From positions 1-52,183 of the IMG/VR virus record IMGVR_UViG_3300045988_175993: a stretch of DNA of 52,183 nucleotides, one strand, 5' to 3'. Positions 2,192-19,712 of the stretch are shown here, in pieces. Numbering within the stretch: the stretch's first letter is position 1; each line of letters starts with the position of its first letter. Both the position numbers and the translations under genes were made by a program. The notes beneath the pieces were generated by a model that was not told the origin of the DNA, searched no databases, and saw only the letters and a list, made by a program, of their open reading frames with translations. Source of the DNA: a virus.

Positions 2192-2199
2192 ATATAAAA

Positions 2200-2453: not shown

Positions 2454-2459
2454 CAAAGG

Positions 2460-2906: not shown

Positions 2907-2957
2907 ATGTGTTTTCTCCTTTAATTTATTGTGAGGAATCTCCTCTTTACAGTTGCA

Positions 2958-2986: not shown

Positions 2987-3075
2987 GTTCCATTTTCCTG
3001 GAAAATCTATGTGAATTCGTTGATAAGCTTTGCAGAATACAATCTAGCTTTGAATATCTCAAATTTACTTAATTT

Positions 3076-5128: not shown

Positions 5129-5185
5129 CTGATCCTATCCTTATACTGATTTAGACCTGTAGTCTCAGTATCAATTGTGGCAAAT

Positions 5186-5446
5186 TCATATCCCATATCT
5201 TTCCCTCAGCTTTGTTTGAGCTCTTTTGACTTCATCAATTGGTCTGTGCTGCTTAATCAGATCATCTATCTCAGAGCTGAATATTCCAATGTAATACTCA
5301 TGATTACAGTGAGAACACCGAAAATACTTGTAGTATGTGTGCTTATCCACGTGCTTTTGCTTTATCTTTATGTGGAACTTCTTTCCACAAAAGTTGCATA
5401 CAGGATCGCATACTGGCTTGGGTTTATTCTTCTGAGACAGGAGCAT
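5186..5446 (-). CDS. Small zinc-ribbon protein
   Basis: 86 aa with two Cys pairs (CDPVCNFCGKKFH ... CSHCNHEY). Overlaps the end of glyA. Confidence 0.6.
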   Translation of the reverse strand: MLLSQKNKPKPVCDPVCNFCGKKFHIKIKQKHVDKHTYYKYFRCSHCNHEYYIGIFSSEIDDLIKQHRPIDEVKRAQTKLRERYGI

Positions 5447-6620
5447 AATTTTTCACCATCCCTTGTATAATCTCATCGATCTTATGTGCAACAAAGACAA
5501 AGTCTTCTTCGACATATCCTCTAGTGGTCATAGCAGCTGTCCCTATTCTGAGACCGCTTGCTTGCATAGGACTACGAGTCTCATTGGGTACACAATTCTT
5601 GTTCAAAGTTATCTTGTGTTTATCTAGCTCATCTTGAACCATCTTTCCAGACAGCTGAGGATGGGTATGAGAAAGATCAATCAAGAAAAGATGATTGTCT
5701 GTTCCTCCGGTGATCACTTCATATCCCATGGATACAAATTCTTCTGCCATTGCTTTGCTATTCTTCACAACCTGGTGGATATAACGCCAATAGTCAAGAT
5801 TAAGAGCTTCTTCAGCACAAATAGCCTTTGCTGCAATTATATTCTCAAGTGGACCACCCTGAGTCCCGGGGAATACAGCTGAATCTACTTGTTTCTCATA
5901 CTGAGGCTTACAAAAGATCAATCCACCACGAGGACCACGCAGAGTCTTATGTGTAGTTGTTGTAACTACATCTGCTAAACCAAAAGGAGAAGGATGATCA
6001 TTAGCAACAACAAGACCAGCTATGTGAGCCATGTCAACCATGAATATGGGATTGTATCCTGGATTCCGATCTCGAACATTTTGAATGAGGGAATACATCT
6101 TTTCAAAATCTATTATGCGAGGATAAGCAGAAGCTCCTGCAAGGATCAAATTGGGACGGAACAGGGAAATTTTTCTCAGAAACTCATCATAGTTGATATA
6201 ACCCTTGGCATCTACACCATAGTGAATTACTTCAAACAGTTTGCCAGATATATTCACAGGAGATCCATGAGACAAGTGTCCTCCGCAGTTGAGGCTCATA
6301 GAAAGAACTTTATCACCAGGCTTGAGAAAAGCCATCATTGCAGCCAAATTTGCATTTGCTCCAGAATGAGGCTGGACATTAACATGATAGTTAGTCTTAA
6401 AGACCATTTTCCAGAGTTCTTGGCAATAGGATTCAAGCTCGTCAACAACCTCGCAACCACCATAATATCTATGGTATGGTTTACCCTCAGCATACTTATT
6501 TGTAAAGCAAGATCCCATTGCTTTTAAGACATTGCCACTGACAAAATTCTCACTTGCAATAAGCTCAATTGTATCTATCTGTCTTTTCTGTTCTTTTTCA
6601 ATAAAATCACGAGCCCTCAT
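5424..6620 (-). CDS. glyA: Serine hydroxymethyltransferase
   Basis: ELIASENFVS, NKYAEGKPYHRYYGGCE, and the PLP-lysine motif VVTTTTHKTLRGPRGG. At 398 aa it is full length. Confidence 0.93.
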   Translation of the reverse strand: MRARDFIEKEQKRQIDTIELIASENFVSGNVLKAMGSCFTNKYAEGKPYHRYYGGCEVVDELESYCQELWKMVFKTNYHVNVQPHSGANANLAAMMAFLKPGDKVLSMSLNCGGHLSHGSPVNISGKLFEVIHYGVDAKGYINYDEFLRKISLFRPNLILAGASAYPRIIDFEKMYSLIQNVRDRNPGYNPIFMVDMAHIAGLVVANDHPSPFGLADVVTTTTHKTLRGPRGGLIFCKPQYEKQVDSAVFPGTQGGPLENIIAAKAICAEEALNLDYWRYIHQVVKNSKAMAEEFVSMGYEVITGGTDNHLFLIDLSHTHPQLSGKMVQDELDKHKITLNKNCVPNETRSPMQASGLRIGTAAMTTRGYVEEDFVFVAHKIDEIIQGMVKNYAPVSEE

Positions 6621-6982
6621 ATTATTCTCCCTTCAAATTTCTTACATGTGCTAAACTTATGAACAGGACGTTTTGCTTTAAGGGTACATTCTCCTAACCA
6701 AGGACTTGCGTCTGATACTGATTTCCAGTAAATACACGTATCACATATATTCCCATCAGTTTGAAGTTTCCGGCAAGCAAAATAATCTTCAAGAGCATGA
6801 GCCATTTCCAGCACTTGCTTCCATCTGACCTTTCGCTGATTCGGATTCCCCTTCGAAACAATAATCCCCTTGTTTGGTTCAGTTTCAAGCTTTTCATAGA
6901 TGAGATTGTACATAGCAGTAAACACTACATCTACATCTGAAATAGGCTCTTCCACTTTTAAGCAACCAATCTTTTGCTTCAT
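6617..6982 (-). CDS. Hypothetical Cys-rich (zinc-ribbon-like) protein
   Basis: 121 aa with a C-terminal motif CDTCIYW...C...C. Possibly a paralogue of the next ORF. Confidence 0.65.
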   Translation of the reverse strand: MKQKIGCLKVEEPISDVDVVFTAMYNLIYEKLETEPNKGIIVSKGNPNQRKVRWKQVLEMAHALEDYFACRKLQTDGNICDTCIYWKSVSDASPWLGECTLKAKRPVHKFSTCKKFEGRII

Positions 6983-7287
6983 TTCTCAGTCCCATCCTTA
7001 CAAAAGAATTCTGGGTCTTTATGAATCTTGTCTTTATCGCAGGCATAGTATTTTTGAGATTTAATGCCTTCACCCAAAGTATATTTCTTGTAGTGTTTAC
7101 AGTTCTTGCAACGAACTACTATGCAAATATCAGAGGAATCAAGTTTTGGGTACAGCCAAGAAATTATTCGCTTGAATTCCTCTTGGACATCAGAAAGAAA
7201 AATCTTTTCTCCAGAAGAACTCACAAAACACTTTTGAGGATTCTGCTCAAGTTCTTTCTTCACCATCCGAAGCAAGATTTTGTACAT
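6979..7287 (-). CDS. Hypothetical Cys-rich protein (start uncertain)
   Basis: C-terminal CKNCKHY...C...FFC. The track start 7368 would overlap the upstream ORF by 120 nt, so the internal ATG 7287 (MYKILL) was chosen. The RBS is weak. Confidence 0.5.
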   Translation of the reverse strand: MYKILLRMVKKELEQNPQKCFVSSSGEKIFLSDVQEEFKRIISWLYPKLDSSDICIVVRCKNCKHYKKYTLGEGIKSQKYYACDKDKIHKDPEFFCKDGTEK

Positions 7288-7561
7288 TGTTTTGACTTGC
7301 AACGTTTTCCTCCTGTCTTTTGACTTGCTTAAGGATATCTGACACATACAACCGTTCCCGCTGACCATATCGTCTCAGCTCAACCATATCCCCAAAGAAT
7401 GTTCTAGTTGGCTTGATCATATGCCCTCGGGAATTGTACACATTCCCCTCAAGAGATATCTTGTAATTCTCATAACCAGGGATTGGAACTATTGTGTTCA
7501 ATGTATCACCGTCCTTTCCGGAGCCCAATTCCAGACCAAAGATAATCCCTTGTTTTCCCAT
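7247..7561 (-). CDS. NUMOD4-motif protein, apparently a truncated homing-endonuclease-like DNA-binding module
   Basis: IPGYENYKISLEGNVYNSRGHMIKP is the NUMOD4 pattern (IPGYE.Y.IS..G.V.S). No HNH or GIY-YIG catalytic motifs follow. The start is uncertain (ATG 7561 or TTG 7501). Confidence 0.55.
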   Translation of the reverse strand: MGKQGIIFGLELGSGKDGDTLNTIVPIPGYENYKISLEGNVYNSRGHMIKPTRTFFGDMVELRRYGQRERLYVSDILKQVKRQEENVASQNNVQNLASDGEERT

Positions 7562-9437
7562 CTCGGACTTCTTTGAACCCTTGAGCACGAATATTTCTCA
7601 TAAAAGCATGTTTTTTATGGCTTTCTCTGCCAGTATCAATACAGTATCTACAATAGGCTTCATATAGAGCGGTCTTTTCTGTAGATAGATTGTTCTCTAG
7701 CTTGCAGCATTTTGATAGAAATGCATGTATACTATCAGAATCCCTTCTCAAAGTCTCAACATACCTATCACTGGTACTAGTCCTCGGAATATCCTTAACA
7801 GGCAACAAGTGAAGAAGATATGGTATGATCTCTGTAACACTCTCTTCGCTGCATAAGTCATTGACATAGTCGTTGTTCAAGAAAAGCTCGGTGTTCATGA
7901 ACAAAATACGCATTCTTTTGTAGAAAGCATTTGATTTTTCTTCAAGCTGAAGCGGGAGCTGGTTGAAAGAAAATATCAGCTTACAGAACGGAGTGAAGAA
8001 GAATGGTTCCTTGCCTTTCCTCTCGTGCATGATTTGGTCACCACCAGTGATCTTCTTGAGATTCTCAATACTACTCAACGGAAGAGAGCTGTTATCTGCA
8101 CAAGAATTCAAAAGCCGATTATATAGCTGTGCCGGATAAAATCTCATATTCAGCTCATGCATGCTTAAAGAAGCCACATTTTGTTTTCCAACAAGAGTTT
8201 CAAAAAACCTTATCAAGACTGATTTACCTGTATTGGACTGGCCACACAAAATCATGAAAGTTTTCAAACCATAATCCAAGGTCAAACAATAAGCCATATA
8301 CTTGAGAAGCATCTTGACATCTTCATTAGGGAGACAAGTCTTCTTGAAAAACCCATAAAGCCTAGTCTCCTTAAAGGGCTTGTATTCCCCAACCTCATGG
8401 GGAATTTGAATTGTTTGAAGATACTTGCTATCATGAGGAATCAGTTCTCCTCTCTCAATATCCCAAACACCGTTCTGGAAATTGATAAGATTCTTGTCCC
8501 TATTCAACTCTGTAGGAGCTTTTCTCAACCGAGTATCATCACAAATCAGCCTGAAGCATTCCATGATGCGGTTTTGCGTTATGAGACCATCAACAACAAT
8601 CAAATCCTTGATAGTGTTTCTTACAGGACTACTAGCCTCAACATATACTCCATCCTTATACTGATAGCACTCTCCATCGAGAACAAAGATATCACCACGG
8701 TTGACAAAATATTCACAGATGGCTTTGTGATTTATATTAGTTGGTACACCCTTGCTATTGTAGATCAAATAGGGATTATCGAATTGCTGAGAAGCCTCAT
8801 ATTTCTTGGTGTTTTCAACAATCTTATCCAGCTCTCCTTGATCCATAGGCTGAGCAAAGATTATGTTATTGATTACATCAGCCATCTCTTCTATCTGCTC
8901 ATCAGAAGCTCCTCTGTTCTTATAAGCCATAAGATGAGCAAACAAAGTTGAATTTCTTCCATCCCCGTCTTTGAGACCAAGCAAACTCTCTTTGCGGTTG
9001 ACCATGGGAGTAAATTCAAAAGGCAGTTCAGCAATCTCTTTGCATCTATTGAATTTTCTTCCTTCAGATCCAAAGGGCAGAATTACATACCCTTTATTGG
9101 CACAACGAAAATCGCACTTAAGACCGCAAGGAAGAACCATGCCAACCTTCTGTGGGTACTCCTTATTGCATTTGAAATACAGATGAAGACCTTTTGGAGT
9201 CTGAGCTATCAAGGTTTTCAGCTTGAGTTTCTTAACAACCTCAATAGCTTCTTCTTTTCCCTCATCTATATCAACTACAATGTACCCTGATCTAACCCAC
9301 CAGCCGATTTGACCCCCGGAGAATACATGGGCATCAGCAGCCTGTTCTGAAACAATAGCTGTATCAAGCCGTTTTTTCCCCATGCATCTTACATAAGAGT
9401 CCTGTCCAACCAATGAGTTGAACTCGCTCAAATTCAT
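7506..9437 (-). CDS. Primase-helicase: N-terminal prim-pol domain plus D5_N/P4-family P-loop NTPase
   Basis: Prim-pol motifs: YIVVDIDEGKEE, TPKGLHLYFK, GYVILP. Walker A CGQSNTGKS. 643 aa. Confidence 0.88.
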   Translation of the reverse strand: MNLSEFNSLVGQDSYVRCMGKKRLDTAIVSEQAADAHVFSGGQIGWWVRSGYIVVDIDEGKEEAIEVVKKLKLKTLIAQTPKGLHLYFKCNKEYPQKVGMVLPCGLKCDFRCANKGYVILPFGSEGRKFNRCKEIAELPFEFTPMVNRKESLLGLKDGDGRNSTLFAHLMAYKNRGASDEQIEEMADVINNIIFAQPMDQGELDKIVENTKKYEASQQFDNPYLIYNSKGVPTNINHKAICEYFVNRGDIFVLDGECYQYKDGVYVEASSPVRNTIKDLIVVDGLITQNRIMECFRLICDDTRLRKAPTELNRDKNLINFQNGVWDIERGELIPHDSKYLQTIQIPHEVGEYKPFKETRLYGFFKKTCLPNEDVKMLLKYMAYCLTLDYGLKTFMILCGQSNTGKSVLIRFFETLVGKQNVASLSMHELNMRFYPAQLYNRLLNSCADNSSLPLSSIENLKKITGGDQIMHERKGKEPFFFTPFCKLIFSFNQLPLQLEEKSNAFYKRMRILFMNTELFLNNDYVNDLCSEESVTEIIPYLLHLLPVKDIPRTSTSDRYVETLRRDSDSIHAFLSKCCKLENNLSTEKTALYEAYCRYCIDTGRESHKKHAFMRNIRAQGFKEVRDGKTRDYLWSGIGLRKGR

Positions 9438-9440
9438 AGA

Positions 9441-9926
9441 TTATTCTCCTTGGGTTGAAGATTTACGATTGCTCCCGTCTGTACAAGATATGCAGGCTCC
9501 TCCAGCTCGCAAAGACTTAAAATCACCATAGTGATCGCATCCAACACAAGAACAGTGTTCCGTATCAGTAAAGGTAACTTTTCTATCCTCAAGGGTGATA
9601 TCTTGGCTTTCTGTTTTCTGAAGCCACCTATCCAAGCGCTCAACTTTGCTAGCTATCCTTGACTTGATATCAGAATCTGTAAGACCCATGATATGAACGA
9701 TATGGTCCAATACAATGAATACATCTGCAACCTCATCGAGAGCTTTGTTGTACAAACCTTTTACTGCTCGTTCTGAATCGGTATACCTTGGGTATTTGGC
9801 ACAAACAGCAGCAAGCTCACAAAGTTCTTCATTCGAAACAAGGATTTGAGCAGTATCGCCATACACATGGCGAGCTCTAGCTGTGACTTTGGCTTCTTCT
9901 TCGGTCAGGAATTTGGTGTAATTCAT
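9441..9926 (-). CDS. MazG-like all-alpha NTP pyrophosphohydrolase with Cys-rich C-terminal extension
   Basis: Metal-binding pattern SNEELCELAAVCAKY ... ALDEVADVFIVLDH (E..E / E..D). The tail is CSCVGCDHYGD...CISC. Confidence 0.7.
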   Translation of the reverse strand: MNYTKFLTEEEAKVTARARHVYGDTAQILVSNEELCELAAVCAKYPRYTDSERAVKGLYNKALDEVADVFIVLDHIVHIMGLTDSDIKSRIASKVERLDRWLQKTESQDITLEDRKVTFTDTEHCSCVGCDHYGDFKSLRAGGACISCTDGSNRKSSTQGE

Positions 9927-10405
9927 CTGTCTGTATTATCCTCCATCCAATTAGGTTCATACATCACATCAATGTTGTACAAATCAAATATCTCTTCAGT
10001 TGGACCGCTTATGCGAGCAGATCCTCCATATACAACCTTTGTGATTCCAGCAGATACAATTGCTCTAGCACAAGACTCACAAGGATATCTTGTTACATAA
10101 ATAGTAGCTCCATCCGTGGATATCCCTCTTTGAGCAGCTCCTGTAATAGCATCTATCTCACTGTGAATAGCTCTACAGTCCTCAGGATTTCTATGGGATT
10201 TACTGTCATTGCCATACTTCTCTATCCTCAAGCATTCCCTGTGCTTGCACAAGTCAGGCATAGCGCGGTTTGCTCCCAAACCAATCACAGTCCCGTCTTT
10301 AATGATTGCAGATCCTACAGAGACCTTCTTACAGCCACTGTGTTTCATTGCAAAATCATATGCGAGATCGAGAACTGTGAACCTGTTTTCTGTCCGTCCA
10401 GTCAT
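9923..10405 (-). CDS. dCMP/CMP deaminase (zinc-dependent)
   Basis: HSEIDAI (H-x-E) and YPCESCARAI (PC..C). Start moved to ATG 10405 (RBS GGAGGGG), giving an ATGA overlap with the upstream stop. Confidence 0.88.
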   Translation of the reverse strand: MTGRTENRFTVLDLAYDFAMKHSGCKKVSVGSAIIKDGTVIGLGANRAMPDLCKHRECLRIEKYGNDSKSHRNPEDCRAIHSEIDAITGAAQRGISTDGATIYVTRYPCESCARAIVSAGITKVVYGGSARISGPTEEIFDLYNIDVMYEPNWMEDNTDR

Positions 10406-11220
10406 TTTAACCCCTCCATGAATTCTTGAATTTCTTTCCAATCAAACTTGATACTCTCAACCCCTGAGCGGGTCATAGCAACCTTGATCAATCCAAGGTG
10501 AGTACAAGCACGTTGGAACTTTCGTACTCTGCGATGCTGTTTCTCTTGTATTGTTCCTCTTTCTGAGGCATTACAGCCCCCTTTACCAACCCCCATAGCT
10601 GTACAATCATACTGTATCTCAGTGGTCTTTACACACTCAAGACCGTATGTATAGCATTCAAGTTGAAGAAACAAGTCTTCATTCCCCACAAGCCTGCTAG
10701 TCTTATAATTCAACCCAGCTTCTACAATGGCTTTTACATTTATGCCCACAGCTTGTTGAAGCTGCGCTCGAGGACAAGAACCAAGGTCTGACTCTTTCAT
10801 AGACCAACTGAAAGGACGATATGAAGCTCCGAACATTGCCTCATCACCCCAAAGCATCTCCCAATACAGAAGAACATCGGTCCAATTCTGAGGCTCACCC
10901 ATGATTGTTCCAGAAGCTCTGACGAATTGCTTCTCCTCATCCCAAACAGAAAAGTCCAACCGACCGACATCATCATCTATCATGAATATCCGATCAATTC
11001 CTTTTGAATAAGCATAATTGACCATCTTCTGCCGAGTTTCTCCAATGTTGCGGACTTTTTTCAACTTCACTATATGTGTATCAGGTCTCTTCTTCAACCA
11101 AGCATAATCGCTTGCTTCTTCCTCTCTGACAAATACATATAGGGGAAACTCATACAAAACACTTCGCTTGAGGAAAGTTGCATTGGGTCTTTGATACGAA
11201 GGTACAAATACAGGTATCAT
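10402..11220 (-). CDS. GT-A-fold glycosyltransferase-like protein (candidate DNA-base glycosyltransferase)
   Basis: N-terminal IPVFVPSYQRP and a DxD motif in IFMIDDDVGR. It sits between a Pplase-like gene and the deaminase. The family assignment is tentative. Confidence 0.55.
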   Translation of the reverse strand: MIPVFVPSYQRPNATFLKRSVLYEFPLYVFVREEEASDYAWLKKRPDTHIVKLKKVRNIGETRQKMVNYAYSKGIDRIFMIDDDVGRLDFSVWDEEKQFVRASGTIMGEPQNWTDVLLYWEMLWGDEAMFGASYRPFSWSMKESDLGSCPRAQLQQAVGINVKAIVEAGLNYKTSRLVGNEDLFLQLECYTYGLECVKTTEIQYDCTAMGVGKGGCNASERGTIQEKQHRRVRKFQRACTHLGLIKVAMTRSGVESIKFDWKEIQEFMEGLK

Positions 11221-11307
11221 TCAATCTCCTCCATCTAAGAATTTTCCAAGCCAGTACAACAGCCACAAAAAAGCTACTATTATAATGAGATACCCTGCCA
11301 AAATCAA
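11221..11307 (-). CDS. Possible 28-aa transmembrane micro-protein (TTG start)
   Basis: GAGGAGG RBS lies 6 nt upstream of TTG. Translation (M)ILAGYLIIIVAFLWLLYWLGKFLDGGD. Its TGA abuts the ATG of the glycosyltransferase. Not in the ORF track because it is under 60 aa. Confidence 0.3.
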   Translation of the reverse strand: MILAGYLIIIVAFLWLLYWLGKFLDGGD

Positions 11308-11319
11308 CCTTGTACCTCC

Positions 11320-11682
11320 TCAGAACACAAACTTCTCTGTGACTTCCTCTACTCTGGCTTCGTATCTCCTTTGGAGGTACTCTACAGCTTGTATGTATCC
11401 TTCTTCGGAGAATTCAAACCTCTCACAACGAGTTCCGTTTATAGAAACTACTAGAGCTGGATTTGAAGAACAGTTGTATGTATATCCACGGTATACTGTG
11501 CCATCTGGATTGACCTTCTCCAATCGGTATGAACCTATTTGAAAGACGTTGAACTTTGTTACAGCATCATGGTCTTGGTATGCACGACCAGTGTATCGAT
11601 CGTATTTGGTAATAACATCCCATTCAATCGTGATGGGGATTTGGTTGTATTGCTCCCAAGGAGGGAATTTCGATTTTAACAT
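11320..11682 (-). CDS. Hypothetical protein (120 aa)
   Basis: Start set at ATG 11682 (RBS GGAAAGGG; 5 nt after the upstream stop) instead of track start 11775. No motif recognised. Confidence 0.7.
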   Translation of the reverse strand: MLKSKFPPWEQYNQIPITIEWDVITKYDRYTGRAYQDHDAVTKFNVFQIGSYRLEKVNPDGTVYRGYTYNCSSNPALVVSINGTRCERFEFSEEGYIQAVEYLQRRYEARVEEVTEKFVF

Positions 11683-11686
11683 GCAT

Positions 11687-12694
11687 TCAGCCCTTTCCAT
11701 TGTATTTCTTTCTTGGTCTACCTGTACCATCTTTAGCTCTGATGTATTTGGACAACTCACAGAAACAATTCTCAAGGCTCATTACATTGAAGCACTGATC
11801 GTACTCGGGAAGATCCCAGAATATCTCAGAACAATCCCAATCTTTGCCAAGGACTTCTTTGAAGAGCCTTTCTAGGTTATCTCTAACCCAAAAGATACAT
11901 TCCTCATAGCTCATCCCGTCTCTATCCTTGAACAGGTAATTCAACCCCATCTGACATCCAGGACCAGCAATAGTGAATTCATTCTCAGAGAACGGGAACT
12001 GCTTGATATAAGTCATATCGACAAATATTTGATAAGCCAAGAAATTCCCAAGTCCCATATAGCTTCGGAGTGAATCATATACGTCAGATTGCTTTCTAGC
12101 TGCCTTAATCTGACTCACGATATCCTCATCAAGAAGATGCCGTATAAAGTAGAGGATTCTCATCTCCATACTATTATCAGGAGTATCGTTGGGCAGATAC
12201 CACTTTAGTGCGCGTTTCAGACCTCCAGTGTTAAATGCACCAGTGAAGAAAATGCGATGAGGATCGTCTTTTAGAGCAGCTTCGAACAAAGATCTATACC
12301 ACTCAGGATTCCATCTCTCTTCAGACTCATAGAATGCAATAGGCATACCAATCAACTCTGAAGTCTCATGCTTATTATAGAGCCTGAATAGGATACAATT
12401 CATCAATTTGTCTTCATAGCAAAGAGCGGGATTGGTTGCTATGTTCTTAATAAGCCACTTGCTTTCTCGGTCATGCTCTCTACGGATATTGGTGAATCTG
12501 AAATTCAGCAATACATCGTCTTTAGTCCAGGGAGGATCTTTCTTGAGCACATCTTTCTTGATGTGAATACCATATCTTCGCTTGATGAATTGATACAAGT
12601 ATTTGAGATTTCTTTCATCAATTACTGGATGAGCTTTCTCAATCTTCTTTTGATTCACACCACAGAATTTGGTATCAGCCTTTTTAGTCTTCAT
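11687..12694 (-). CDS. aGPT-Pplase (alpha-glutamyl/putrescinyl thymine pyrophosphorylase) clade-3-like protein; the CDS is certain, the function tentative
   Basis: PPWTKDDVLLNFRFTNIRREHDRESKW and YMGLGNFLAYQIFVDMTY...AGPGCQMGL match what I recall of this HhH-glycosylase-fold family. No HMM was run. Confidence 0.5.
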   Translation of the reverse strand: MKTKKADTKFCGVNQKKIEKAHPVIDERNLKYLYQFIKRRYGIHIKKDVLKKDPPWTKDDVLLNFRFTNIRREHDRESKWLIKNIATNPALCYEDKLMNCILFRLYNKHETSELIGMPIAFYESEERWNPEWYRSLFEAALKDDPHRIFFTGAFNTGGLKRALKWYLPNDTPDNSMEMRILYFIRHLLDEDIVSQIKAARKQSDVYDSLRSYMGLGNFLAYQIFVDMTYIKQFPFSENEFTIAGPGCQMGLNYLFKDRDGMSYEECIFWVRDNLERLFKEVLGKDWDCSEIFWDLPEYDQCFNVMSLENCFCELSKYIRAKDGTGRPRKKYNGKG

Positions 12695-13278
12695 CTGGCA
12701 TTCTCCATAAGCTTTGATGCAATCATGTCCGCCTGATGAGTCCAGAGCACATTGGGAAAAGCTCGAATTGCTTCATCATACTCACCCCAAGCATCCGTTT
12801 CATAAGCCCCCATATGGAATCTGATACAAAGCCTTTCTTCTGTGGTAAGATACATGTAGTCTTCAATTTTCAAAACTGAATCCATTCCATGAATTTCTGA
12901 AAACTTGATCTGATCAACCTTATGGGTGTAACCATACTCAAGTTCTCCTGTCAAAGGATTCTTTTCTTGAAATGTCTGATAAGCCCCGATTTTGGTAACA
13001 TCATGAAGCATACCGATAATCAGAGGACTCGAGCTTCTGGTCCAAGTGCAGAATCCTGCCTGAGTAAACCATTCCAGTTGCTGGAACACGTTCCTCGAGT
13101 GATCATACAGTCCTCCATAGTAGTTGCAGTGATGCTTTGCCGCAGCCGGAGCTCTGAAGAAGTCCGTGGTACAAAGCCACTTAAAGGGGAATTCATCTTT
13201 TGAGATATTGTTGAGCCTCAGAAGTCTTTCCAGGTCTTCCTGCCTCGCTTCCTCAGAATCAAATAAGGTTTTCAGCAT
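12691..13278 (-). CDS. HD-domain phosphohydrolase
   Basis: GGLYDHS, MLHDVTK and HQADMIAS give the H...HD...D metal ligands. It is the first gene behind the promoter at 13312-13340. Confidence 0.8.
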   Translation of the reverse strand: MLKTLFDSEEARQEDLERLLRLNNISKDEFPFKWLCTTDFFRAPAAAKHHCNYYGGLYDHSRNVFQQLEWFTQAGFCTWTRSSSPLIIGMLHDVTKIGAYQTFQEKNPLTGELEYGYTHKVDQIKFSEIHGMDSVLKIEDYMYLTTEERLCIRFHMGAYETDAWGEYDEAIRAFPNVLWTHQADMIASKLMENAR

Positions 13279-13311
13279 AGTTTTTCTCCTTTCAGATTTA
13301 GAATCTACCTT

Positions 13312-13340
13312 ATTATATATGAATTTTGCTCAGAAATAAA
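13312..13340 (-). promoter_or_regulatory. Sigma-A-like promoter (-35 TTTATT, 17 bp, -10 TATAAT)
   Basis: Minus strand reads CTTTATTTCTGAGCAAAATTCATATATAAT. Its architecture matches the TTTACT-N17-TAGAAT family. Confidence 0.55.
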
Positions 13341-13349
13341 GACGAAAAT

Positions 13350-13411
13350 AGGATGAGAAAATCTTCAAATCTGACGATATTTACATCAAACAGTTGGGAT
13401 TTTCTCACCCT
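13350..13411 (-). terminator. Rho-independent terminator candidate
   Basis: 14-bp stem aggatgagaaaatc/gattttctcaccct with 1 mismatch. On the minus strand it is followed by ATTTTCGTCTTTATTT. It lies between the stop at 13431 and the next promoter. Confidence 0.55.
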
Positions 13412-13430
13412 ATCATACCCTCTCATATTT

Positions 13431-14075
13431 TTACGAAATGCTTCGTCTATTCATAACGGATTTCCCATCTGTCTTTCCAGCAAAGAACGCATCAACTTGA
13501 TTGACATCCATCTTCATGGTCGCTTTTGATTCTTTCAGCACAGGGAACTTCTCTGCAAATGCAGTCTTAACATCCTCAGGAACAACTACAGCAAGAGCAA
13601 CGGTCTGAGCATCAAGAGCTTCTTTCAGACCATGCAGGAAACCTGAAGCATATGCATTGTATATGAGAGAAGCTCCAGCCTGAGCCGAAGACAGACCGTG
13701 TTCACGGCAGACCTTTCTCATCCCCTGTTCCATCACCTTGTATGCAAACTCGAGGGCAGATTTAGCTGAGATAGCATTAACACTGTGACCAAAGAAGTGG
13801 ATTCTTCCATAGGTGATGATTGCCTTGCATCCAAACGAATCTGCAATGATAGAAGACATCCGTTTTGAGCGGGGATCCACTTTCACCTTGCACATCTCAA
13901 GATCATAGGTGATCTTTTCACCAGAAGGAAGAGCTCCCTGTTCGATATTGTACTTGGCCATCAACCTCTGAGCCAAAAGAAGAGCTTGTTTCGCTTCCGC
14001 TTCAGAAGCTCCGTTTGTTGTAGTCTTATCCAGCAGATGCTGAATCTTTTCGATGATCTTATCCGTATCAGCCAT
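13431..14075 (-). CDS. DUF2786-like protein
   Basis: Start set at ATG 14075 (MADTDKIIEKIQHLLDKTTTNGASEAEAKQALLLAQRLMAKY), which gives the typical DUF2786 N-terminus. RBS gagggg. Confidence 0.65.
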   Translation of the reverse strand: MADTDKIIEKIQHLLDKTTTNGASEAEAKQALLLAQRLMAKYNIEQGALPSGEKITYDLEMCKVKVDPRSKRMSSIIADSFGCKAIITYGRIHFFGHSVNAISAKSALEFAYKVMEQGMRKVCREHGLSSAQAGASLIYNAYASGFLHGLKEALDAQTVALAVVVPEDVKTAFAEKFPVLKESKATMKMDVNQVDAFFAGKTDGKSVMNRRSIS

Positions 14076-14088
14076 TGTGTTGTACCCC

Positions 14089-14355
14089 TCAAATTTCAGA
14101 TAGTGTATCAGCCCATTGGGCAGCGTCATAACCTATGCTCTCGATCTCGCTGAGCACATCGTTCAGGGTATCAAGGTACTCCTGCATCTGTTCGCCGTGC
14201 TCACTGTCCCGGATCGACTCTGGAAGGTTGTCGTAGGATTCCTGCTCGTCATCTATAACTTGCTGCAGATCCCCAAGGATCTCGTCCTTGAGTTCTTCCA
14301 GATTCTGTAACTTTTTAGTGATCTCCTTGAGCATTCTTCTCTTGATCTTGTTCAT
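14089..14355 (-). CDS. Hypothetical acidic coiled-coil protein
   Basis: Start set at ATG 14355 (RBS aaggagga). Contains LPESIRDSEHGEQMQEYL. Confidence 0.7.
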   Translation of the reverse strand: MNKIKRRMLKEITKKLQNLEELKDEILGDLQQVIDDEQESYDNLPESIRDSEHGEQMQEYLDTLNDVLSEIESIGYDAAQWADTLSEI

Positions 14356-14365
14356 ATGGTCCTCC

Positions 14366-14734
14366 TTAGAATATGGTGGGATAGCCAAGAGTCATCCCGA
14401 TTTTGTTGGCGAACTTGGGGTTCTTTGCATTGATCTGAACATCAGTGTTCTTATCAAAATCAAGGAACTTGCCCTGCTTGGTCATAACAGTATAGGCTTC
14501 TTTGCTTTCCGCGAGCACCTTGAACCAACCAATGACCATTCCGGTGAAAGCTTTGATCTCAACAACCTGCTGGGCTTCGTCCCATTTGCTGTACCAGCGC
14601 TTGAGGGTACTGAGAGAAACAAACTTCTCTTCTTTACCACCCATCTGTACCAGATTGACTTTATCACCCATGGTGATGTACTCGTTCAGTGCATACAACT
14701 TATTGGTGCGTTTGTCCTTGTATATTGTAACCAT
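14366..14734 (-). CDS. Hypothetical protein, paralogue of the N-domain of ORF 2460..2906
   Basis: KAFTGMVIGWFKVLAESKEAYTVMTKQGKFLDFDKNTDVQIN aligns with KGFTGIKLGVFEVISTTKKTITVLKRNGDEMIFDIKTGKQMN. Confidence 0.75.
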   Translation of the reverse strand: MVTIYKDKRTNKLYALNEYITMGDKVNLVQMGGKEEKFVSLSTLKRWYSKWDEAQQVVEIKAFTGMVIGWFKVLAESKEAYTVMTKQGKFLDFDKNTDVQINAKNPKFANKIGMTLGYPTIF

Positions 14735-14751
14735 TGTGTAATCCCCCTTAT

Positions 14752-14883
14752 TCAGCGTTTACTCAGTTCTTCAACAACTTTGATGATCATGTCAGAGTAG
14801 AACTGATCTCCTGTTTCAGAAGCCAACTTTTTCAGAGCTTCTAAGCTGTTCTTCAGTTCCTCGGTGGTATACTTCTCAAACAT
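14752..14883 (-). CDS. Small hypothetical protein (43 aa)
   Basis: ATG 14883 is preceded by the conserved leader ATCTGAAAGGAGA. Translation MFEKYTTEELKNSLEALKKLASETGDQFYSDMIIKVVEELSKR. It is the first ORF after the promoter. Confidence 0.5.
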   Translation of the reverse strand: MFEKYTTEELKNSLEALKKLASETGDQFYSDMIIKVVEELSKR

Positions 14884-14932
14884 TTTGTAATTCTCCTTTC
14901 AGATTCAAGGGGCTTCTTCATCTTACAGGTAT

Positions 14933-14961
14933 ATTCTACTATAGATTTTTGTAAAAGTAAA
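14933..14961 (-). promoter_or_regulatory. Sigma-A-like promoter (-35 TTTACT, 17 bp, -10 TAGAAT)
   Basis: Minus strand reads CTTTACTTTTACAAAAATCTATAGTAGAAT, immediately downstream of the terminator hairpin. Confidence 0.65.
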
Positions 14962-15018
14962 GCCCTGTAAACTTGTAAAGAAGTTACCAAGAATCAACAA
15001 AATACAAGTTTACAGGGC
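14962..15018 (-). terminator. Rho-independent terminator candidate
   Basis: Perfect 16-bp stem gccctgtaaacttgta/tacaagtttacagggc with a 25-nt loop. The minus-strand 3' flank is TTTACTTTT. Confidence 0.6.
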
Positions 15019-15073
15019 TTATCAAGAAGCAAAGGTTATCAAAACCACAAAATCTTGAGAAAAATCAAGAAAT

Positions 15074-15628
15074 TTAAGAATTTTCTACAAATTTTACCAA
15101 GATGGTATCAGTTCCATCCCAAGTTGATCTATATTCTATCCCTTGAGGAGTCAAACAAAAATAGACACAGTTTCCAGGAATAGTAGCTACATAGCATTCT
15201 CCTTGCAGCTCCAAGAGTTCTTTAGCAAGACGAACAGTGTGATACTCCGGCTGTACATCCTCTGAATATCCCTGCCATTGATGTTTTTGACAACAGACCT
15301 CAACTATAGTATCGGGGAAACCTGGAGTATTCACTCTGTTGATAACACATTGCATTATAGAAGTCAAACAACTGTCATCAAGAGAGATTCCATAGTCAGC
15401 TTCAACAACCGAGTTGATAGATTCAGCCACCATAGCTAGATTACGTGCATCACTCGCTGTACTGAGAGGACTTTCCTCGGGATATTGCTGCCAATAGGTC
15501 AAGCGATCTATGACCTCAACAGTTGACTCCGGAAGGACTTCCACTTGAGGCTGTTCAACAGGAGAAAGCATAGTCACACCAAACATAAGCACCAGGCATG
15601 CGATAGTCAACGACAAGAATACTCTCAT
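15074..15628 (-). CDS. Secreted SleB/CwlJ-type cell-wall hydrolase (Hydrolase_2-like)
   Basis: N-terminal signal/TM segment MRVFLSLTIACLVLMFGVTML. CVINRVNTPGFPDTIVEVCCQKHQWQGY resembles the Hydrolase_2 core. Confidence 0.65.
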   Translation of the reverse strand: MRVFLSLTIACLVLMFGVTMLSPVEQPQVEVLPESTVEVIDRLTYWQQYPEESPLSTASDARNLAMVAESINSVVEADYGISLDDSCLTSIMQCVINRVNTPGFPDTIVEVCCQKHQWQGYSEDVQPEYHTVRLAKELLELQGECYVATIPGNCVYFCLTPQGIEYRSTWDGTDTILVKFVENS

Positions 15629-15631
15629 AGT

Positions 15632-15901
15632 TTACTCCTTTGTTCTACCTTTCTTTTGATTGCGGTCAATTATTGTCGCAGGCTGTATAGATGACAGCAA
15701 TACCTGTCCTGTTACCATTACCAGAACCGCTCGAGTTCTTCGACCATAAGTGGCATCTACAGCTTTCCCATTGTCTTTAGCTTCCTGGATAATCCGTTTG
15801 ATCGGTGCAGATTCAGGATTAACAATAGCAGCCACTTGGTCAGAGTTTACAAAGTTTCCAAGACCGATGTCAAGAATATTCAACACACTCACCTCATCCA
15901 A
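15632..15901 (-). CDS. remA: RemA (DUF370) family DNA-binding regulator
   Basis: NILDIGLGNFVNSDQVAAIVNPESAPIKRIIQEAKDNGKAVDATYGRRTRAVLVM closely matches the Bacillus RemA pattern (INIGFGN...SPESAPIKR...IDATYGRRTRAV). Confidence 0.85.
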   Translation of the reverse strand: MDEVSVLNILDIGLGNFVNSDQVAAIVNPESAPIKRIIQEAKDNGKAVDATYGRRTRAVLVMVTGQVLLSSIQPATIIDRNQKKGRTKE

Positions 15902-16188
15902 AAGAGATTGATGTCTTTAACTCCACAGTCCTTCTTTATCAGCTCAACCAGCTCGGGATAGAGCTCAGAGAACATTCCCTCAAGGTTCAGCACATTGCCA
16001 GCAAGATCAAATCTTGTGATATAAGCCACCACAGATCCGTCCTCGAACTTGTATATCGTCTGGCGAATGGGGATCTGCCTGATGAGCTTGTTGTTCTTGA
16101 TCTCGTCCGTGATAGAGAACCATCTCTCCACAGTGATAGTGAATCCTCCAGCGCTTATGAGGTGAATGTCTTCATGTATGGGTAACAT
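15889..16188 (-). CDS. Hypothetical protein (99 aa)
   Basis: ORF packed tightly between neighbouring genes. No motif recognised. Confidence 0.7.
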   Translation of the reverse strand: MLPIHEDIHLISAGGFTITVERWFSITDEIKNNKLIRQIPIRQTIYKFEDGSVVAYITRFDLAGNVLNLEGMFSELYPELVELIKKDCGVKDINLFWMR

Positions 16189-16190
16189 TG

Positions 16191-16610
16191 TTAATTTTCC
16201 TCCTTGTGGTCAAATATATGCCAAAGATTATAACCTTTCCGCTCAAGAATCTCCAAACAATCATCCAAATAGAAGATATCTTGTTCAGGATAGACAGTGC
16301 CTGAAAGCTTCTGATTCAGCTCTGTAAGATTTGGAGCATTGGTTTCATCATAGACGATCTTGGGAAGATCCTTGCCTCGATAACCTATATCGAACCACTG
16401 AAGATCAACTTTGTATTTCCGGAACATCATCTCCCGCATCACTTTAAGATGATAGCAGAACAGCCACTCTCTAGGGTGATCAAATACATAGCCAACTACG
16501 GGATCAGGGGTGTTCCAGTTTCCTTTTCTGAGGGCGCAGCACTCACGGTGTGCGCCCAGCAGGTAACGTTTGGGAAGATATGGAATCAAGGCTTCATGCC
16601 AGAGCTTCAT
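16191..16610 (-). CDS. TIGR02328-like protein (pyrimidine-dimer DNA glycosylase/DenV-related fold)
   Basis: The N-terminus MKLWHEALIPYLPKRYLLGAHRECCALRKGNW is the hallmark I recall for this family (MRLWH..LIP.LP...LL.q.RECCa.R). Confidence 0.6.
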   Translation of the reverse strand: MKLWHEALIPYLPKRYLLGAHRECCALRKGNWNTPDPVVGYVFDHPREWLFCYHLKVMREMMFRKYKVDLQWFDIGYRGKDLPKIVYDETNAPNLTELNQKLSGTVYPEQDIFYLDDCLEILERKGYNLWHIFDHKEEN

Positions 16611-16918
16611 GTGTCTATCTCCCTCCAGTATTTACGATCATCGCATTCTGAACAAAGAGAATTCCCTCTGTTCGCACAGACGTCGCAGCTGATAGGTCTT
16701 GCCTGTACTCTGTCTGTGCGTATGAGATACAGACGCTTATTGATCACGCGGACAGCGATGGGAAGGTTTTCAAGCTTTATTCTCTGACGAAAAGAATTTG
16801 CTGCAGAATTGAGAGATTTGTACTCTCCAGGCGTGGGGATATAACGAATTGTATCGAGCCATCTATTGTTCTCGAATTCGTGAAGAACGCCTTTAACAGA
16901 TGTGTACTTTTTTGACAT
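16607..16918 (-). CDS. Hypothetical protein with C-terminal Cys cluster
   Basis: Start set at ATG 16918 (RBS ggagga). C-terminal motif CDVCANRGNSLCSEC. Confidence 0.65.
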   Translation of the reverse strand: MSKKYTSVKGVLHEFENNRWLDTIRYIPTPGEYKSLNSAANSFRQRIKLENLPIAVRVINKRLYLIRTDRVQARPISCDVCANRGNSLCSECDDRKYWREIDT

Positions 16919-17018
16919 GATGATTCCTCCTGATGTATTCAATTGTGGATGGTTTTCCACGACTCCCTTCTACTATTATAATAGGAGGGAGTTTCGGTCA
17001 GTAACCAGCTGGCCATCA

Positions 17019-17228
17019 TCAGGTGGAATGCTCTCTATTGTACAGAGCAAGGGCTTCATCCCAGCTCAGTCTCTTGGGATTCTGATCTTCAGGATTCTTA
17101 AAGAGCAGGGGCTGCCAACCACCAGAGGTTGTTCCTATGCACTTCCCGCTCGGAAGGTCTATCCCACAGCCGCCATAAGTAGGATCATTCTCGATCAGTT
17201 CCATCAGTTCGTTGATTGTGTTCAGCAT
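17019..17228 (-). CDS. Hypothetical protein (69 aa)
   Basis: Preceded by the conserved leader ATCTGAAAGGAGA. Confidence 0.65.
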   Translation of the reverse strand: MLNTINELMELIENDPTYGGCGIDLPSGKCIGTTSGGWQPLLFKNPEDQNPKRLSWDEALALYNREHST

Positions 17229-17262
17229 TTCTTTGATCTCCTTTCAGATTCAATAAACTCTC

Positions 17263-17547
17263 TCAGTCAACTTCTATCTCAATGATCTCAACTTGTTTGT
17301 TCCAGTATCGATCCGAATTGCAGCTATGGTAAACATAAGAGCGGGCTGCATCGCATTTGCGCTTGTAGCCATAGGCTTTTATCATGTAGGGGGTGACTTT
17401 GCTGATATTCTTCAGATAGTCGTGCATAGTTCCTTCCCTTCCTAGGAGCTTCTGATCCTTCCCATAATAGGCTATTGAAGTCATACCAGCAAAGTTGGGA
17501 TTATCCTGGGTAGCCTTTGATGTTGCTTTTACGATGTAATACGTCAT
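17263..17547 (-). CDS. Hypothetical protein (94 aa)
   Basis: Preceded by the conserved leader ATCTGAAAGGAGA. Confidence 0.7.
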   Translation of the reverse strand: MTYYIVKATSKATQDNPNFAGMTSIAYYGKDQKLLGREGTMHDYLKNISKVTPYMIKAYGYKRKCDAARSYVYHSCNSDRYWNKQVEIIEIEVD

Positions 17548-17572
17548 TTGTTATTTCTCCTTTCAGATCCAA

Positions 17573-17824
17573 TTAAAGGCTCAAAGCCTTGGATACAAAA
17601 GATCTCCGGCGGTCAGGGAGAAAGACATAGATGACTACATCGTTTTCCCTGTCTTCCATATTGTTAGAACATACTTCGCATCTAACAACTGCCCAATCGG
17701 GATCAGTCAAAGTATCGGTGTAGGAGAAGCCAGTCACTCTGCATTCCTTATTGTCTCTGAGAGAAGCAAAACGCTCAACTCTCTTGATCTCGCTCGGGAG
17801 AAGGTTTTCAAACTTTTTCATCAT
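17573..17824 (-). CDS. Hypothetical protein (83 aa), first gene of the leftward arm
   Basis: RBS aaggagga. Lies downstream of the promoter at 17870-17898. Confidence 0.7.
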   Translation of the reverse strand: MMKKFENLLPSEIKRVERFASLRDNKECRVTGFSYTDTLTDPDWAVVRCEVCSNNMEDRENDVVIYVFLPDRRRSFVSKALSL

Positions 17825-17844: not shown

Positions 17845-17901
17845 GGGGTTTCTTTTAACTTACAAGCATATTCTACTACGAATTTCTACAAAAGTAAAGT
17901 C
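17845..17901. repeat. 57-bp exact repeat (promoter plus 5' leader), copy 1
   Basis: ggggtttcttttaacttacaagcatattctactacgaatttctacaaaagtaaagtc is identical to 44677-44733. Confidence 0.95.
17870..17898 (-). promoter_or_regulatory. Sigma-A-like promoter (-35 TTTACT, 17 bp, -10 TAGAAT)
   Basis: Minus strand reads CTTTACTTTTGTAGAAATTCGTAGTAGAAT. Confidence 0.7.
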
Positions 17902-18044
17902 AGTGAAAATGCTATAAAAGTTATTGATAAAAGTAATTTCACAACTTTTTGTAGATAATTCTTTTGTAAAAGTTACAACTGTTGTAAAAATTCACAAAAA
18001 TTCACGAATTTTAGAAAATTTGAAAAATTTTTACAATAAAAATG

Positions 18045-18803
18045 AAAAATAGTCGCAAGATGTCCTTGTAAAATCCTTGAGCTCTCAAAAATCTAAAAAT
18101 AGGTTAAAAATAGGCGGAAGCACGAAAAAATTCCCTTGAGCTCTCAAGGATTTTTCTCCATCGGGAAAACTAAAAATAGTCTCATAATTTACAATAAATC
18201 TACAACAAATTTCGCGCCTATTTTTTGCTTTCTTATTTTAGGCAGGAGGAAAAAGAAGAAGTGGAAAAGTCGTGAAAATAAAAATAGGCGGAATCCTTGT
18301 AGATCTGAATTCGAAAAATAGTCTCAAGAAGTGCTTGTAAATTTATTGTCTCCTCAAGAAAGTGAAAAATAGGCTAAAAATAGGCGGAGACGGAATTTTT
18401 TCCTTTGTAAAATACAACATTTTTCCTCATCAGGAAAACTAAAAATAGTCTCATAATCCTTGTAGATTTTACAAGATTTTCTATACCTATTTTTATACTT
18501 TTATTTTAACGTATAGAAAAATAGTATAGAATAGAAAGTAAAAATATAGAATAATTTATATATATAAAATAGAGCACACGAAAAAAAGTCTCATAATTCT
18601 TGAGACATTGGGTTCACTCCGAGTTTTTACAACAAGATCTCACGTTTTCTTCACTTCTCGTGATCGATTGAATACTCGATTTACAAGACTTTTTTACCTA
18701 TTTTTATTTTTCTCCACGGAGAAAAGTGTTGTAAATTACAAGCGAAAAAATTTCGCTTATACCTATTTTTAACCTATTTTTTACAAGACGTCCGCCTATT
18801 TTT
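18045..18803. repeat. Iteron-like array: 16 exact AAAAATAG/CTATTTTT octamers with dyad organisation around an AT-rich core; candidate origin or packaging/regulatory region
   Basis: Forward copies at 18045, 18095, 18106, 18172, 18280, 18314, 18365, 18376, 18441, 18517. Reverse copies at 18218, 18487, 18698, 18763, 18774, 18796. Two diverged ~270-bp tandem units. No credible ORF. Confidence 0.8.
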
Positions 18804-18965
18804 CGAATTTTCGTAAAATTTTACAAGATTCGACGCGATCTTGGGAAGTTCATTTTCCACATTCCGGTCTTCGCCGAAAATTAGGGCGTGCCCCCTGGGC
18901 TCGAAAAAGATCGAAAAAATTTCGGAAGTCCTTGGGATACTTAAAGATTTTTAAGTAAATAGGGG

Positions 18966-18994
18966 TTTACTTTCCGAAAGAAAGAGAGTATAAT
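18966..18994 (+). promoter_or_regulatory. Sigma-A-like promoter of the rightward (late) arm (-35 TTTACT, 17 bp, -10 TATAAT)
   Basis: GTTTACTTTCCGAAAGAAAGAGAGTATAAT lies 32 nt upstream of the terS ATG. Confidence 0.65.
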
Positions 18995-19025: not shown

Positions 19026-19712
19026 ATGGCAAAGAAACAAATCATTATTGATGCGCCCTCTCATCCGGTTATTCGGTATCGAAAGATAGACGATCGCCAT
19101 GTAGTTGTGGACTTGAGAGGGATACGGAATCCCCATAGTCCATTCAATGGCCATATCAATCCAACAAAAGGTTTTCAACGAAAGTTTGTATCTCCACAAC
19201 ATCTTGAAAGTCTTTGTAATGAATACTTTGAATCCTGTTACGGTCCAGTACTCGATAAACATGGATATCCTGTGTATGATCGCCAAGGAAAACTTGTAAA
19301 AACACAAGTGAAGCCGTTTACAGTGTCAGGATTGGCTTTGTATCTCAAGATTTCAACGGAGTGTTTGAAGAAATACAAGCTCGGAAGAGTGGATACAATC
19401 TTGGATGAGATGAGAGCTGAGACTGACGACTCTGCTACTTTTGCTCAAGTGATTGCAAGAGCTAGACAAAGAATTGAGAGTTATGCCGAGGAACGGAACT
19501 ACGATGCTCAAGGACAACGAGGAGGACAATATATCCTTGATTGTTGTTTCGGTTGGAAAGATAGTAGAACATCTGCAGAAATTGAACGTCACAAGCGAGA
19601 GATGGATTTGAAAGAGAAGGAATTTGATCTCAAGCAAAAGCTTCTTGATGAAGACTCCGAGGACAATGATTTCACAATAAATATAATTCGTGCCAAACGA
19701 AAGGATGAGTAA
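19026..19712 (+). CDS. terS: Terminase small subunit (gp3-packaging-like)
   Basis: LESLCNEYFESC...KPFTVSGLALYLKISTECLKKY matches the HTH pattern seen in gp3-type small terminases. It is the first gene of the late arm. Confidence 0.6.
   Translation: MAKKQIIIDAPSHPVIRYRKIDDRHVVVDLRGIRNPHSPFNGHINPTKGFQRKFVSPQHLESLCNEYFESCYGPVLDKHGYPVYDRQGKLVKTQVKPFTVSGLALYLKISTECLKKYKLGRVDTILDEMRAETDDSATFAQVIARARQRIESYAEERNYDAQGQRGGQYILDCCFGWKDSRTSAEIERHKREMDLKEKEFDLKQKLLDEDSEDNDFTINIIRAKRKDE

Follow-up and report, generated by a model that had tools for sequence, protein, structure and literature searches.

An array of octamer iterons around an A+T-rich core between the divergent gene arms of a gut phage genome: a candidate origin of replication

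The alpha protein of P4 binds octamer iterons, present in both orientations, at the two loci ori and crr, the latter being made of two direct repeats of ~120 bp. The origins of the staphylococcal pathogenicity islands (SaPIs) hold 6-12 iterons, placed to the left and right of a central A+T region with opposite orientations; the winged-helix C-terminal domain of Rep binds them (PMC9371898). SaPI Reps are self-loading initiator-helicases (PMC9371898), and P4 alpha follows the same domain logic (PMC2777425). Here we describe an array of 16 exact copies of an octamer, AAAAATAG, located at 18045-18803 of the IMG/VR virus record IMGVR_UViG_3300045988_175993, which was analysed over its whole length of 52,183 nucleotides and is called the window below. 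The array occupies the gap between two divergent gene arms. We read it as the phage's origin of bidirectional (theta) replication and put the chances of this being correct a little above even.

Other described systems bear on what such an array might do. In the Ceduovirus phages, the origin is found in the non-coding region between the divergent early and late modules (PMC7150918). In SPP1, the origins oriL and oriR consist of direct repeats plus an A+T-rich unwinding element, while the packaging site, pac, has few boxes and overlaps the promoter, the ribosome-binding site and the 5' coding sequence of terS (PMC6316719). The footprints of RemA comprise six or more poorly conserved 7-bp repeats with a strict 10-bp period (PMC8481266).

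Architecture of the iteron array and its A+T core

The octamer AAAAATAG occurs 18 times in the window, and 16/18 copies lie within the 759 bp of the array (binomial P ~6e-28). Shuffled sequence yields a mean of 3.4 and a maximum of 9 copies per whole window. Ten copies are on the + strand (18045, 18095, 18106, 18172, 18280, 18314, 18365, 18376, 18441 and 18517) and six on the - strand (18218, 18487, 18698, 18763, 18774 and 18796), exactly at the positions and on the strands listed in a first-pass annotation of this DNA. The extended forms that it described, AAAAATAGGCGGA (n=4) and AAAAATAGTCTCA (n=3), are present as claimed. Three iteron subtypes can be distinguished: AAAAATAGGCG(G/C), AAAAATAGG(T/C)T, which is always the first member of an 11-bp doublet, and AAAAATAGTCTCA. 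All but one of the octamers (15/16) fit the 10-mer AAAAATAGGC with no more than one mismatch. From start to start, successive iterons are 50, 11, 66, 46, 62, 34, 51, 11, 65 ... bp apart. One strand of each iteron is nearly all thymine (CTATTTTT). The locus thus has the cluster of multiple short identical iterons by which SaPI- and P4-type origins are recognized.

These origins also have an A+T region near their centre, with iterons on both sides, and the same is seen here. A core at 18488-18575, 86% A+T, is flanked by 12 iterons on the left and four on the right, and is a candidate for the DNA-unwinding element. Of all 80-bp duplexes in the 52-kb genome the least stable is found here, with a free energy of -76 kcal/mol against a genome mean of -105 (standard deviation 5.7) and -87 for the runner-up; the core thus stands ~5 standard deviations from the mean. 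The near-pure A+T stretch singled out by the first-pass annotation therefore coincides with the genome-wide stability minimum. Within the core are a word conserved in the phage family, TATATA(TA)AAA(G/T), and a hexamer resembling TAGAAT/TATAAT. An inverted pair of sites brackets it. The left member, CCTATTTTT (18486-18494, - strand), is an inverted iteron, and the right member, AAAAAAAGTC (18581-18590, + strand), is degenerate in the window and exact in most relatives.

SaPI- and P4-type origins further have at least two iterons per side, running in opposite directions; here the left iterons are mostly forward and the right ones all reverse. The dyad organisation proposed earlier holds for this overall polarity. 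It is imperfect in detail, since the left side has ten forward and two reverse copies against four reverse copies on the right, and since the pair that brackets the core has a polarity opposite to that of the outer arrays.

The left side is built of two tandem modules, and the ~270-bp duplication that had been proposed is real. Module 1 (18040-18313, + strand) carries, in order, a single forward iteron, a forward doublet, a further forward iteron, a reverse iteron and then a single forward one. Module 2 (18314-18585, + strand) repeats this order and terminates in the A+T core. Repeat families D4, D8 and D19 recur between them at a spacing of 269-270. In each left module the final reverse iteron abuts an A+T or purine-rich tract, which after module 2 is the core itself. 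On the right, a partial module (18679-18830, - strand) is an inverted copy of part of module 2, with four reverse iterons, TTTACAAG boxes and the repeats I1, I3 and I9; the inverted copy extends over 106 nt (18362-18467 versus 18679-18784) and is 74% complementary. The four reverse iterons begin ~115 bp to the right of the core bracket.

In every module, an 18-nt palindrome stands in front of one of the iterons. The copies are TTTTCTCCATCGGGAAAA (18152-18169, + strand), which ends 2-3 nt 5' of its iteron, TTTTCCTCATCAGGAAAA (18421-18438, + strand), likewise 5' of an iteron, and TTTTCTCCACGGAGAAAA (18708-18725, - strand), which adjoins a reverse iteron. The three differ by compensatory changes at position pairs 6/13 and 7/12, those of TTTTCCTCATCAGGAAAA being seen against the other copies. 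The 7-bp inverted repeat noted at first pass, CCTTGAGCTCTCAAGG at 18134-18149, is present too and has a partial direct copy at 18075-18088 (D11). The palindromes were considered as intrinsic terminators and rejected, as no T-run follows them on either strand, weak candidates aside. Rfam searches of the region and of one relative (L001), at gathering and permissive thresholds, returned nothing except a tRNA elsewhere.

The first-pass annotation also gave every octamer a partner box 6-12 bp away. This is not the case, as only 7/16 have (C)TTGTA(A/G) 8-12 bp from their TAG end. The box CTTGTA[AG] is nevertheless enriched, 10 of its 39 genomic copies being in the intergenic region (P 1.5e-8). Its core TTGTAA is found 15 times in the array against 1.1 expected, and the arrays of most relatives, but not of every one, show this enrichment as the window does.

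The window is complete and circular (an assembly of ~52,064 bp), because its first and last 119 bases (1-119 and 52065-52183) are identical. The leftward genes, at 1-17824 and 44-52 kb, make up the replication and DNA-modification arm, which encodes PolA (3076-4782), a primase-helicase (7506-9437), a SNF2 helicase and a RemA-like protein. The rightward genes, from 19026 on, encode TerS, a DUF4417 nuclease, TerL (Terminase_3), the portal and structural proteins. The 1.2-kb gap between these arms, which holds the array, is the largest non-coding stretch in the genome, and no non-coding DNA flanks the primase-helicase gene; both points favour an origin in the gap. The cumulative GC-skew minimum is also at ~18 kb, where it is confounded by the switch of coding strand. 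Far from the array, a tRNA-Gln gene (anticodon TTG; 2118-2191, minus strand) lies inside a 793-bp gene-poor stretch (1667-2459). A comparison of the window with deposited phages gave no match at the nucleotide level.

Conservation of the array and variation of its iterons

Relatives were collected from IMG/VR contigs and one bin of a metagenome-assembled genome (MAG), giving more than 12 distinct members. Every one has the word, in 8-19 copies, in the corresponding gap between divergent arms. The order of parts is kept: modules first, then the bracketed A+T core, then reverse copies, of which there are two to four. Iterons around an A+T region are conserved as an arrangement in 11 lineages, and the number of modules varies by lineage from 1 to 3 while the bracketed core is constant. 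The surrounding non-coding sequence is not alignable. Identity to the window proteins is 38-64% for TerS, 42-64% for the RemA-like protein and 71-98% for the primase-helicase.

Most lineages, including the window, share the type I iteron, AAAAATAGGCG. Type II, AAAAAAGTCG, is found in L161, type III, AAAAATCGGCG, in L144 and L149, and type IV, AAAATTAGGCG, in L146. The types differ by one or two bases, and the change is present in every copy of its lineage with the architecture unchanged. Such a concerted change is the pattern expected of sites for a sequence-specific protein. The iteron-adjacent palindrome likewise persists with other stems (TTACTCC/GGAGTAA, TTACTTC/GAAGTAA, TTTTACC/GGTAAAA and TCAGAA/TTCTGA). 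Because both the iterons and the palindrome stems change while the architecture persists, they read as selected protein-binding sites in a conserved scaffold and not as products of drift.

The protein might conceivably belong to the host. The array would then be a set of sites for a nucleoid protein, a host initiator or a Chi-like recombination signal recruited by the phage, which would explain why the word is invariant across phages with diverged proteins: the octamer stays the same even where identity in TerS, RemA and the primase C-terminal domain is only ~40%. Forward copies to the left and reverse ones to the right would also suit Chi-like sites around a central break. However, L161 and L006, whose primase-helicases are 94% identical and which presumably share hosts, carry different iterons, the word is not enriched elsewhere in the genome, and neither the window nor its relatives have a cluster of DnaA boxes. 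We regard a host reader as very improbable, and the Chi-like version, though considered, ranks low among the rivals.

As to the hosts themselves, two family members, L225 and L224, come from MAG bins that bear the names Candidatus Avilachnospira sp. and Eubacteriales bacterium. These bin names hint at a host among the Lachnospiraceae or other clostridial gut bacteria, and the hosts of this uncultured gut-phage family are probably Lachnospiraceae.

Some features are peculiar to single lineages. At the left edge of its array (4320-4460), L007 has four or five copies, in both orientations, of (T/C)TATCCAAT, a lineage-specific second repeat that loosely resembles a DnaA box (7/9 positions). The first early gene of L001 has a GC-rich, apparently structured leader of ~180 nt (4590-4790, - strand), which has no match in Rfam and no counterpart in the window. 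A broad IMG/VR scan for the doublet pattern, filtered by octamer density, brought up other contigs that were mostly chance A+T-rich matches; L070, L102 and others proved to be low-complexity repeats.

Beyond the family proper, the deposited but distant bajarodcaudo virus 5 encodes a primase-helicase and a TerS that are 39% and 35% identical to those of the window. At the head of its replication arm are tandem 13- and 15-bp repeats, an A+T tract of ~140 bp and a palindromic word repeated three times. This element is 9 kb from terS, which is preceded only by an ordinary promoter.

Candidate readers of the array

The P4-family primase-helicase (7506-9437, - strand) is a candidate initiator acting in trans. 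It has archaeo-eukaryotic primase (AEP) motifs, PriCT, D5_N, a superfamily 3 (SF3) helicase and a C-terminal winged-helix-like domain. Its assignment to the P4 family, made at first pass, is secured by the TIGR01613 model (134.6 bits against a cut-off of 108.7), and its profile matches also include D5_N, DUF5906 and PriCT. The only relative in PDB is 7OLA, the SaPI5 protein PriRep5 (E 6.6e-13), with homology through residue 614. An SF3 helicase-initiator with a C-terminal winged helix, as used by SaPI- and P4-type origins, is accordingly encoded, the fold of the last 60 aa being indicated by sub-threshold RFX and Pox_D5 matches only. The C-terminal domain alone has no meaningful match in PDB, and its single-sequence AlphaFold2 model (pLDDT, the predicted local distance difference test, 45) is too low in confidence to use.

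We propose that an initiator encoded by the phage would bind the 10-11-bp iterons (AAAAATAG followed by GCG, GT or TC), and that this is most likely the primase-helicase of P4/SaPI type, whose C-terminal winged-helix domain would make the contact. Binding to the inverted pair would put protein on both sides of 18488-18575, and the most easily melted DNA of the genome would open. Hexamers of the SF3 helicase could then load themselves on either side of the opened core, the N-terminal AEP domain of the same protein would prime synthesis, and PolA would extend. Forks leaving the array would be co-directional with the two divergent arms, and all genes would be co-oriented with them. The left tandem 270-bp modules might serve as auxiliary initiator-loading or enhancer sites, comparable to crr of P4, and the palindromes found at one iteron per module, together with the TTGTAA boxes, would probably add structural or regulatory inputs.

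An origin composed of iterons and an unwinding element and served by the P4-family primase-helicase was also the first-pass proposal. It is still the best explanation, and it is strengthened by the family-wide architecture, the concerted iteron change, the stability minimum, the homology to TIGR01613 and PriRep5 and the element of bajarodcaudo virus 5. The part of that proposal which assigns recognition of the octamer to the C-terminal domain finds no support in covariation.

Several observations weigh against an origin read by this protein. Phages of iteron types I, II and III share one and the same C-terminal recognition helix, KKHxFMRNxR. Between the type-II phage and the type-I phage closest to it, the C-terminal domain differs at only five residues, all conservative changes and G620S among them. 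The domain of the type-I phage L007/L226 is only 42% identical to that of the window; the type III domain has several unique residues (A611G, Y632A). When TerS, the primase C-terminal domain and RemA are compared with iteron type, no candidate clearly co-varies. The initiator gene is not directly beside the array, as it is at SaPI- and P4-type origins: the array is 8.6 kb upstream of it, at the head of its operon. The missing DnaA-box cluster tells against an origin as well as against a host reader, and as single-stranded DNA the palindromes would form weak hairpins of -2 to -4.5 kcal/mol. In L007 the left array is inverted and reverse copies predominate to the left as well as to the right, which shows that the layout can do without a strict dyad. 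Throughout the family proper the array is in every case next to terS, so that position does not tell pac from ori there. Finally, each of the four leftward promoters of the window has TTGTAA shortly after its -10 element, and the word recurs there in relatives. Because the word is common to the array and the early promoters, a transcriptional input of these boxes, besides any replication role, is likely.

This last point leads to the promoters, two of which flank the array. The leftward promoter of the early/replication arm (TTTACT-17-TAGAAT, 17870-17898, - strand) and the rightward terS promoter (TTTACT-17-TATAAT, 18966-18994, + strand) are both strong, of sigma-A type, and belong to one family, TTTACT-17-TA(G/T)AAT. 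A regulatory nucleoprotein assembly on these divergent promoters, in which a RemA-like ring or another early protein that coats or wraps iterons and TTGTAA boxes switches between the arms, would place the array where it is, between two promoters of near-identical form. Read the way either promoter transcribes, the iterons nearest to it show CTATTTTT, and the 15-fold enrichment of TTGTAA in the array, with its recurrence downstream of the leftward -10 elements, fits this too. So do the phased A-tracts upstream of the early promoter (17986-18052, + strand, ~10 bp period), which lie between it and the first iteron. The phage encodes a RemA-like protein (15632-15901, - strand; Pfam PF04025, E 9e-30; NCBIfam NF003315, 107 bits), as do most relatives, and RemA binds repetitive A+T-rich DNA upstream of promoters (PMC8481266).

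The details fit such an assembly less well. In the window and its relatives the iterons end ~150-160 bp short of both promoters (147-163 bp from the nearest iteron in the window; ~150 bp on the early side and ~160 bp on the terS side). The sites are exact and 11-108 bp apart, and only the doublets are phased, at 11 bp, unlike RemA footprints; the ~7-bp repeats at a 10-bp period within ~160 bp of a promoter that the RemA alternative of the first-pass annotation calls for are not what is found. RemA is 94% identical between phages of iteron types I and II, and in the 22-kb loci of L144 and L149, type-III phages with full arrays whose contigs are partly covered, no gene for it turned up. The small early proteins beside the array (83, 94, 69, 117, 99 and 122 aa) match no DNA-binding family in Pfam or NCBIfam, even at lenient thresholds. 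Promoter control leaves the conserved, extreme A+T core and its bracket of inverted sites unexplained. We consider it rather unlikely as the main function of the array.

The boxes within the array are not promoters themselves. TTTACA and TATTTT are 11-15 bp apart, so they do not form -35/-10 pairs, in agreement with the earlier remark that the spacing does not follow sigma-A geometry. A search for sigma-70-type promoters inside the array found 9 against 5.1±2.0 expected, which is not significant.

Further features were noticed around the flanking promoters. A stretch of 57 bp that includes the early promoter and the start of its leader is duplicated identically (17845-17901 = 44677-44733). A sequence common to the four leftward promoters, CTTTACTTT...TAGTAGAAT, has (C)TGTAA 5-6 nt further on in each. 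The -35 of the terS promoter lies within a palindrome, AGTAAA-N3-6-TTTACT (18952-18971), which is conserved in relatives and could be an operator. About 60 bp upstream of the same promoter is a GC-rich box, GGGCGTGCCCCCTGGGCTCGA (18884-18904), with a weak hairpin; it is near-identical in seven lineages with differing surroundings and absent from L006, L007, L116 and L161, and it may mark a pac cut region or serve regulation.

TerS (19026-19712, + strand) is the other rival candidate binder. It combines a GP3_package core, a helix-turn-helix (HTH) and a family-specific N-terminal extension of 50 aa. The extension (residues 1-50, 19026-19175) has an RGIR motif. If the array were pac, rings of TerS would bind its repeats and TerL would cut nearby for headful packaging. 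TerL is indeed of the headful Terminase_3 type, and the array is always directly upstream of terS in the family. The HTH is conserved, and distant TerS homologues from IMG/VR have neither the ~50-aa extension nor upstream arrays. Type-III phages carry a different TerS N-terminal extension and HTH. This last correlation is offset by L007, whose TerS is as divergent as the type-III protein and whose iteron is still type I; moreover, no HTH residue separates the type-II phage from type-I phages.

Three partial IMG/VR contigs (L005 at its start, L045 at its end and L146 at its start) break inside the array near the A+T core, as they would at a packaging cut. Contig breaks are expected at tandem or inverted repeats, however, and these probably reflect assembly failure there or low coverage of A+T-rich DNA. 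Known pac and cos sites, in which TerS sites are few, differ from an array of 16-20 sites over 760 bp; the last iteron ends at 18803, ~220 bp before the start of terS at 19026, and no copies lie within terS, so that the overlap with its promoter and coding region seen at known sites is lacking. Neither the unwinding-prone core nor the variable number of modules would have a role in pac. The repeat/A+T element of bajarodcaudo virus 5, being 9 kb from terS, also argues against it. The packaging alternative raised at first pass is weakened by all this, and we hold it to be improbable.

The window also encodes a full thymidine-hypermodification gene set (5424-6620, 9923-12694 and 47561-51057). It comprises two 5-hydroxymethyl-deoxyuridine (5-hmdU) DNA kinases (PF18723 and PF18748), an amino-acid:DNA transferase (PF18724), a TET-associated glycosyltransferase, a thymidylate-synthase homologue, serine hydroxymethyltransferase, dCMP deaminase, deoxynucleoside monophosphate kinase and an FkbM methyltransferase. 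Judging from these genes, the DNA of the phage is probably hypermodified at T. Because one strand of the iterons is nearly all thymine and a 5-hmdU pathway is encoded, the occupancy of the sites may hinge on whether the DNA is freshly replicated or fully modified. The array might then be a shared control hub with several phage readers, which may include the initiator-helicase, TerS through its N-terminal extension and the RemA-like ring. This is a long shot; if true, origin firing, packaging and the switch from early to late would all be tied to the modification state.

Comparison with described systems

Read as an origin, the array makes a concrete prediction that can be tested throughout a family of uncultured gut phages, their DNA being predicted to contain hypermodified thymidines. 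Full-size lytic siphoviruses would join the SaPIs and P4 as bearers of this type of origin, in which a self-loading primase-helicase acts on iterons and an A+T core. The natural single-base iteron variants provide a ready series for mapping the reader protein and the evolution of its specificity.

Among the more distant parallels, Lactococcus phage c2 of the Ceduovirus group likewise has its origin between divergently transcribed modules. Origins of the c2 type support plasmid replication without phage proteins and involve early-promoter transcripts, unlike what is predicted here, and they have no comparable array of exact iterons and no P4-type helicase. SPP1 resembles the window phage in being a siphovirus of Bacillota with headful packaging and in having origins of repeats plus an A+T-rich element. 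However, its pac (pacL-pacC-pacR) overlaps the start region of terS, which the array does not, and its initiator gp38 and DnaB-type helicase are unrelated to the proteins of the window. The RemA regions of Bacillus subtilis (eps and tapA promoters) share with the array repetitive A+T-rich DNA upstream of promoters, a RemA homologue being encoded here as well. RemA sites lie within ~160 bp of the start site; in the window, exact copies follow one another at irregular intervals and reach as far as 600 bp from the promoters.

P4 and the SaPIs are closer. The window protein passes the P4-family model TIGR01613, and the direct repeats of crr resemble the tandem modules. The primase domain of P4 alpha is of DnaG type, in contrast to the AEP motifs (DxD, GLHLYF) and PriCT of the window protein. 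Moreover, ori and crr are separate loci in P4, whereas the modules and the core are contiguous here.

With the SaPIs, the array shares two sets of iterons in opposite orientation around a central A+T-rich region, and an element-encoded fusion of primase and SF3 helicase with a C-terminal winged-helix domain. A SaPI origin packs 6-12 iterons of five or six nucleotides into ~300 bp and directly follows rep. The array has 16-20 sites of 10-11 bp over 760 bp, with 270-bp modules, palindromes and a second box, and it is 8.6 kb from the helicase gene, in the gap that separates early from late operons. The size, the construction from modules, the palindromes beside iterons and the iteron variants of particular lineages are useful details that bring no new principle. 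Set beside these relatives, the array is an ordinary kind of element in a new phage group and not a new kind of system.

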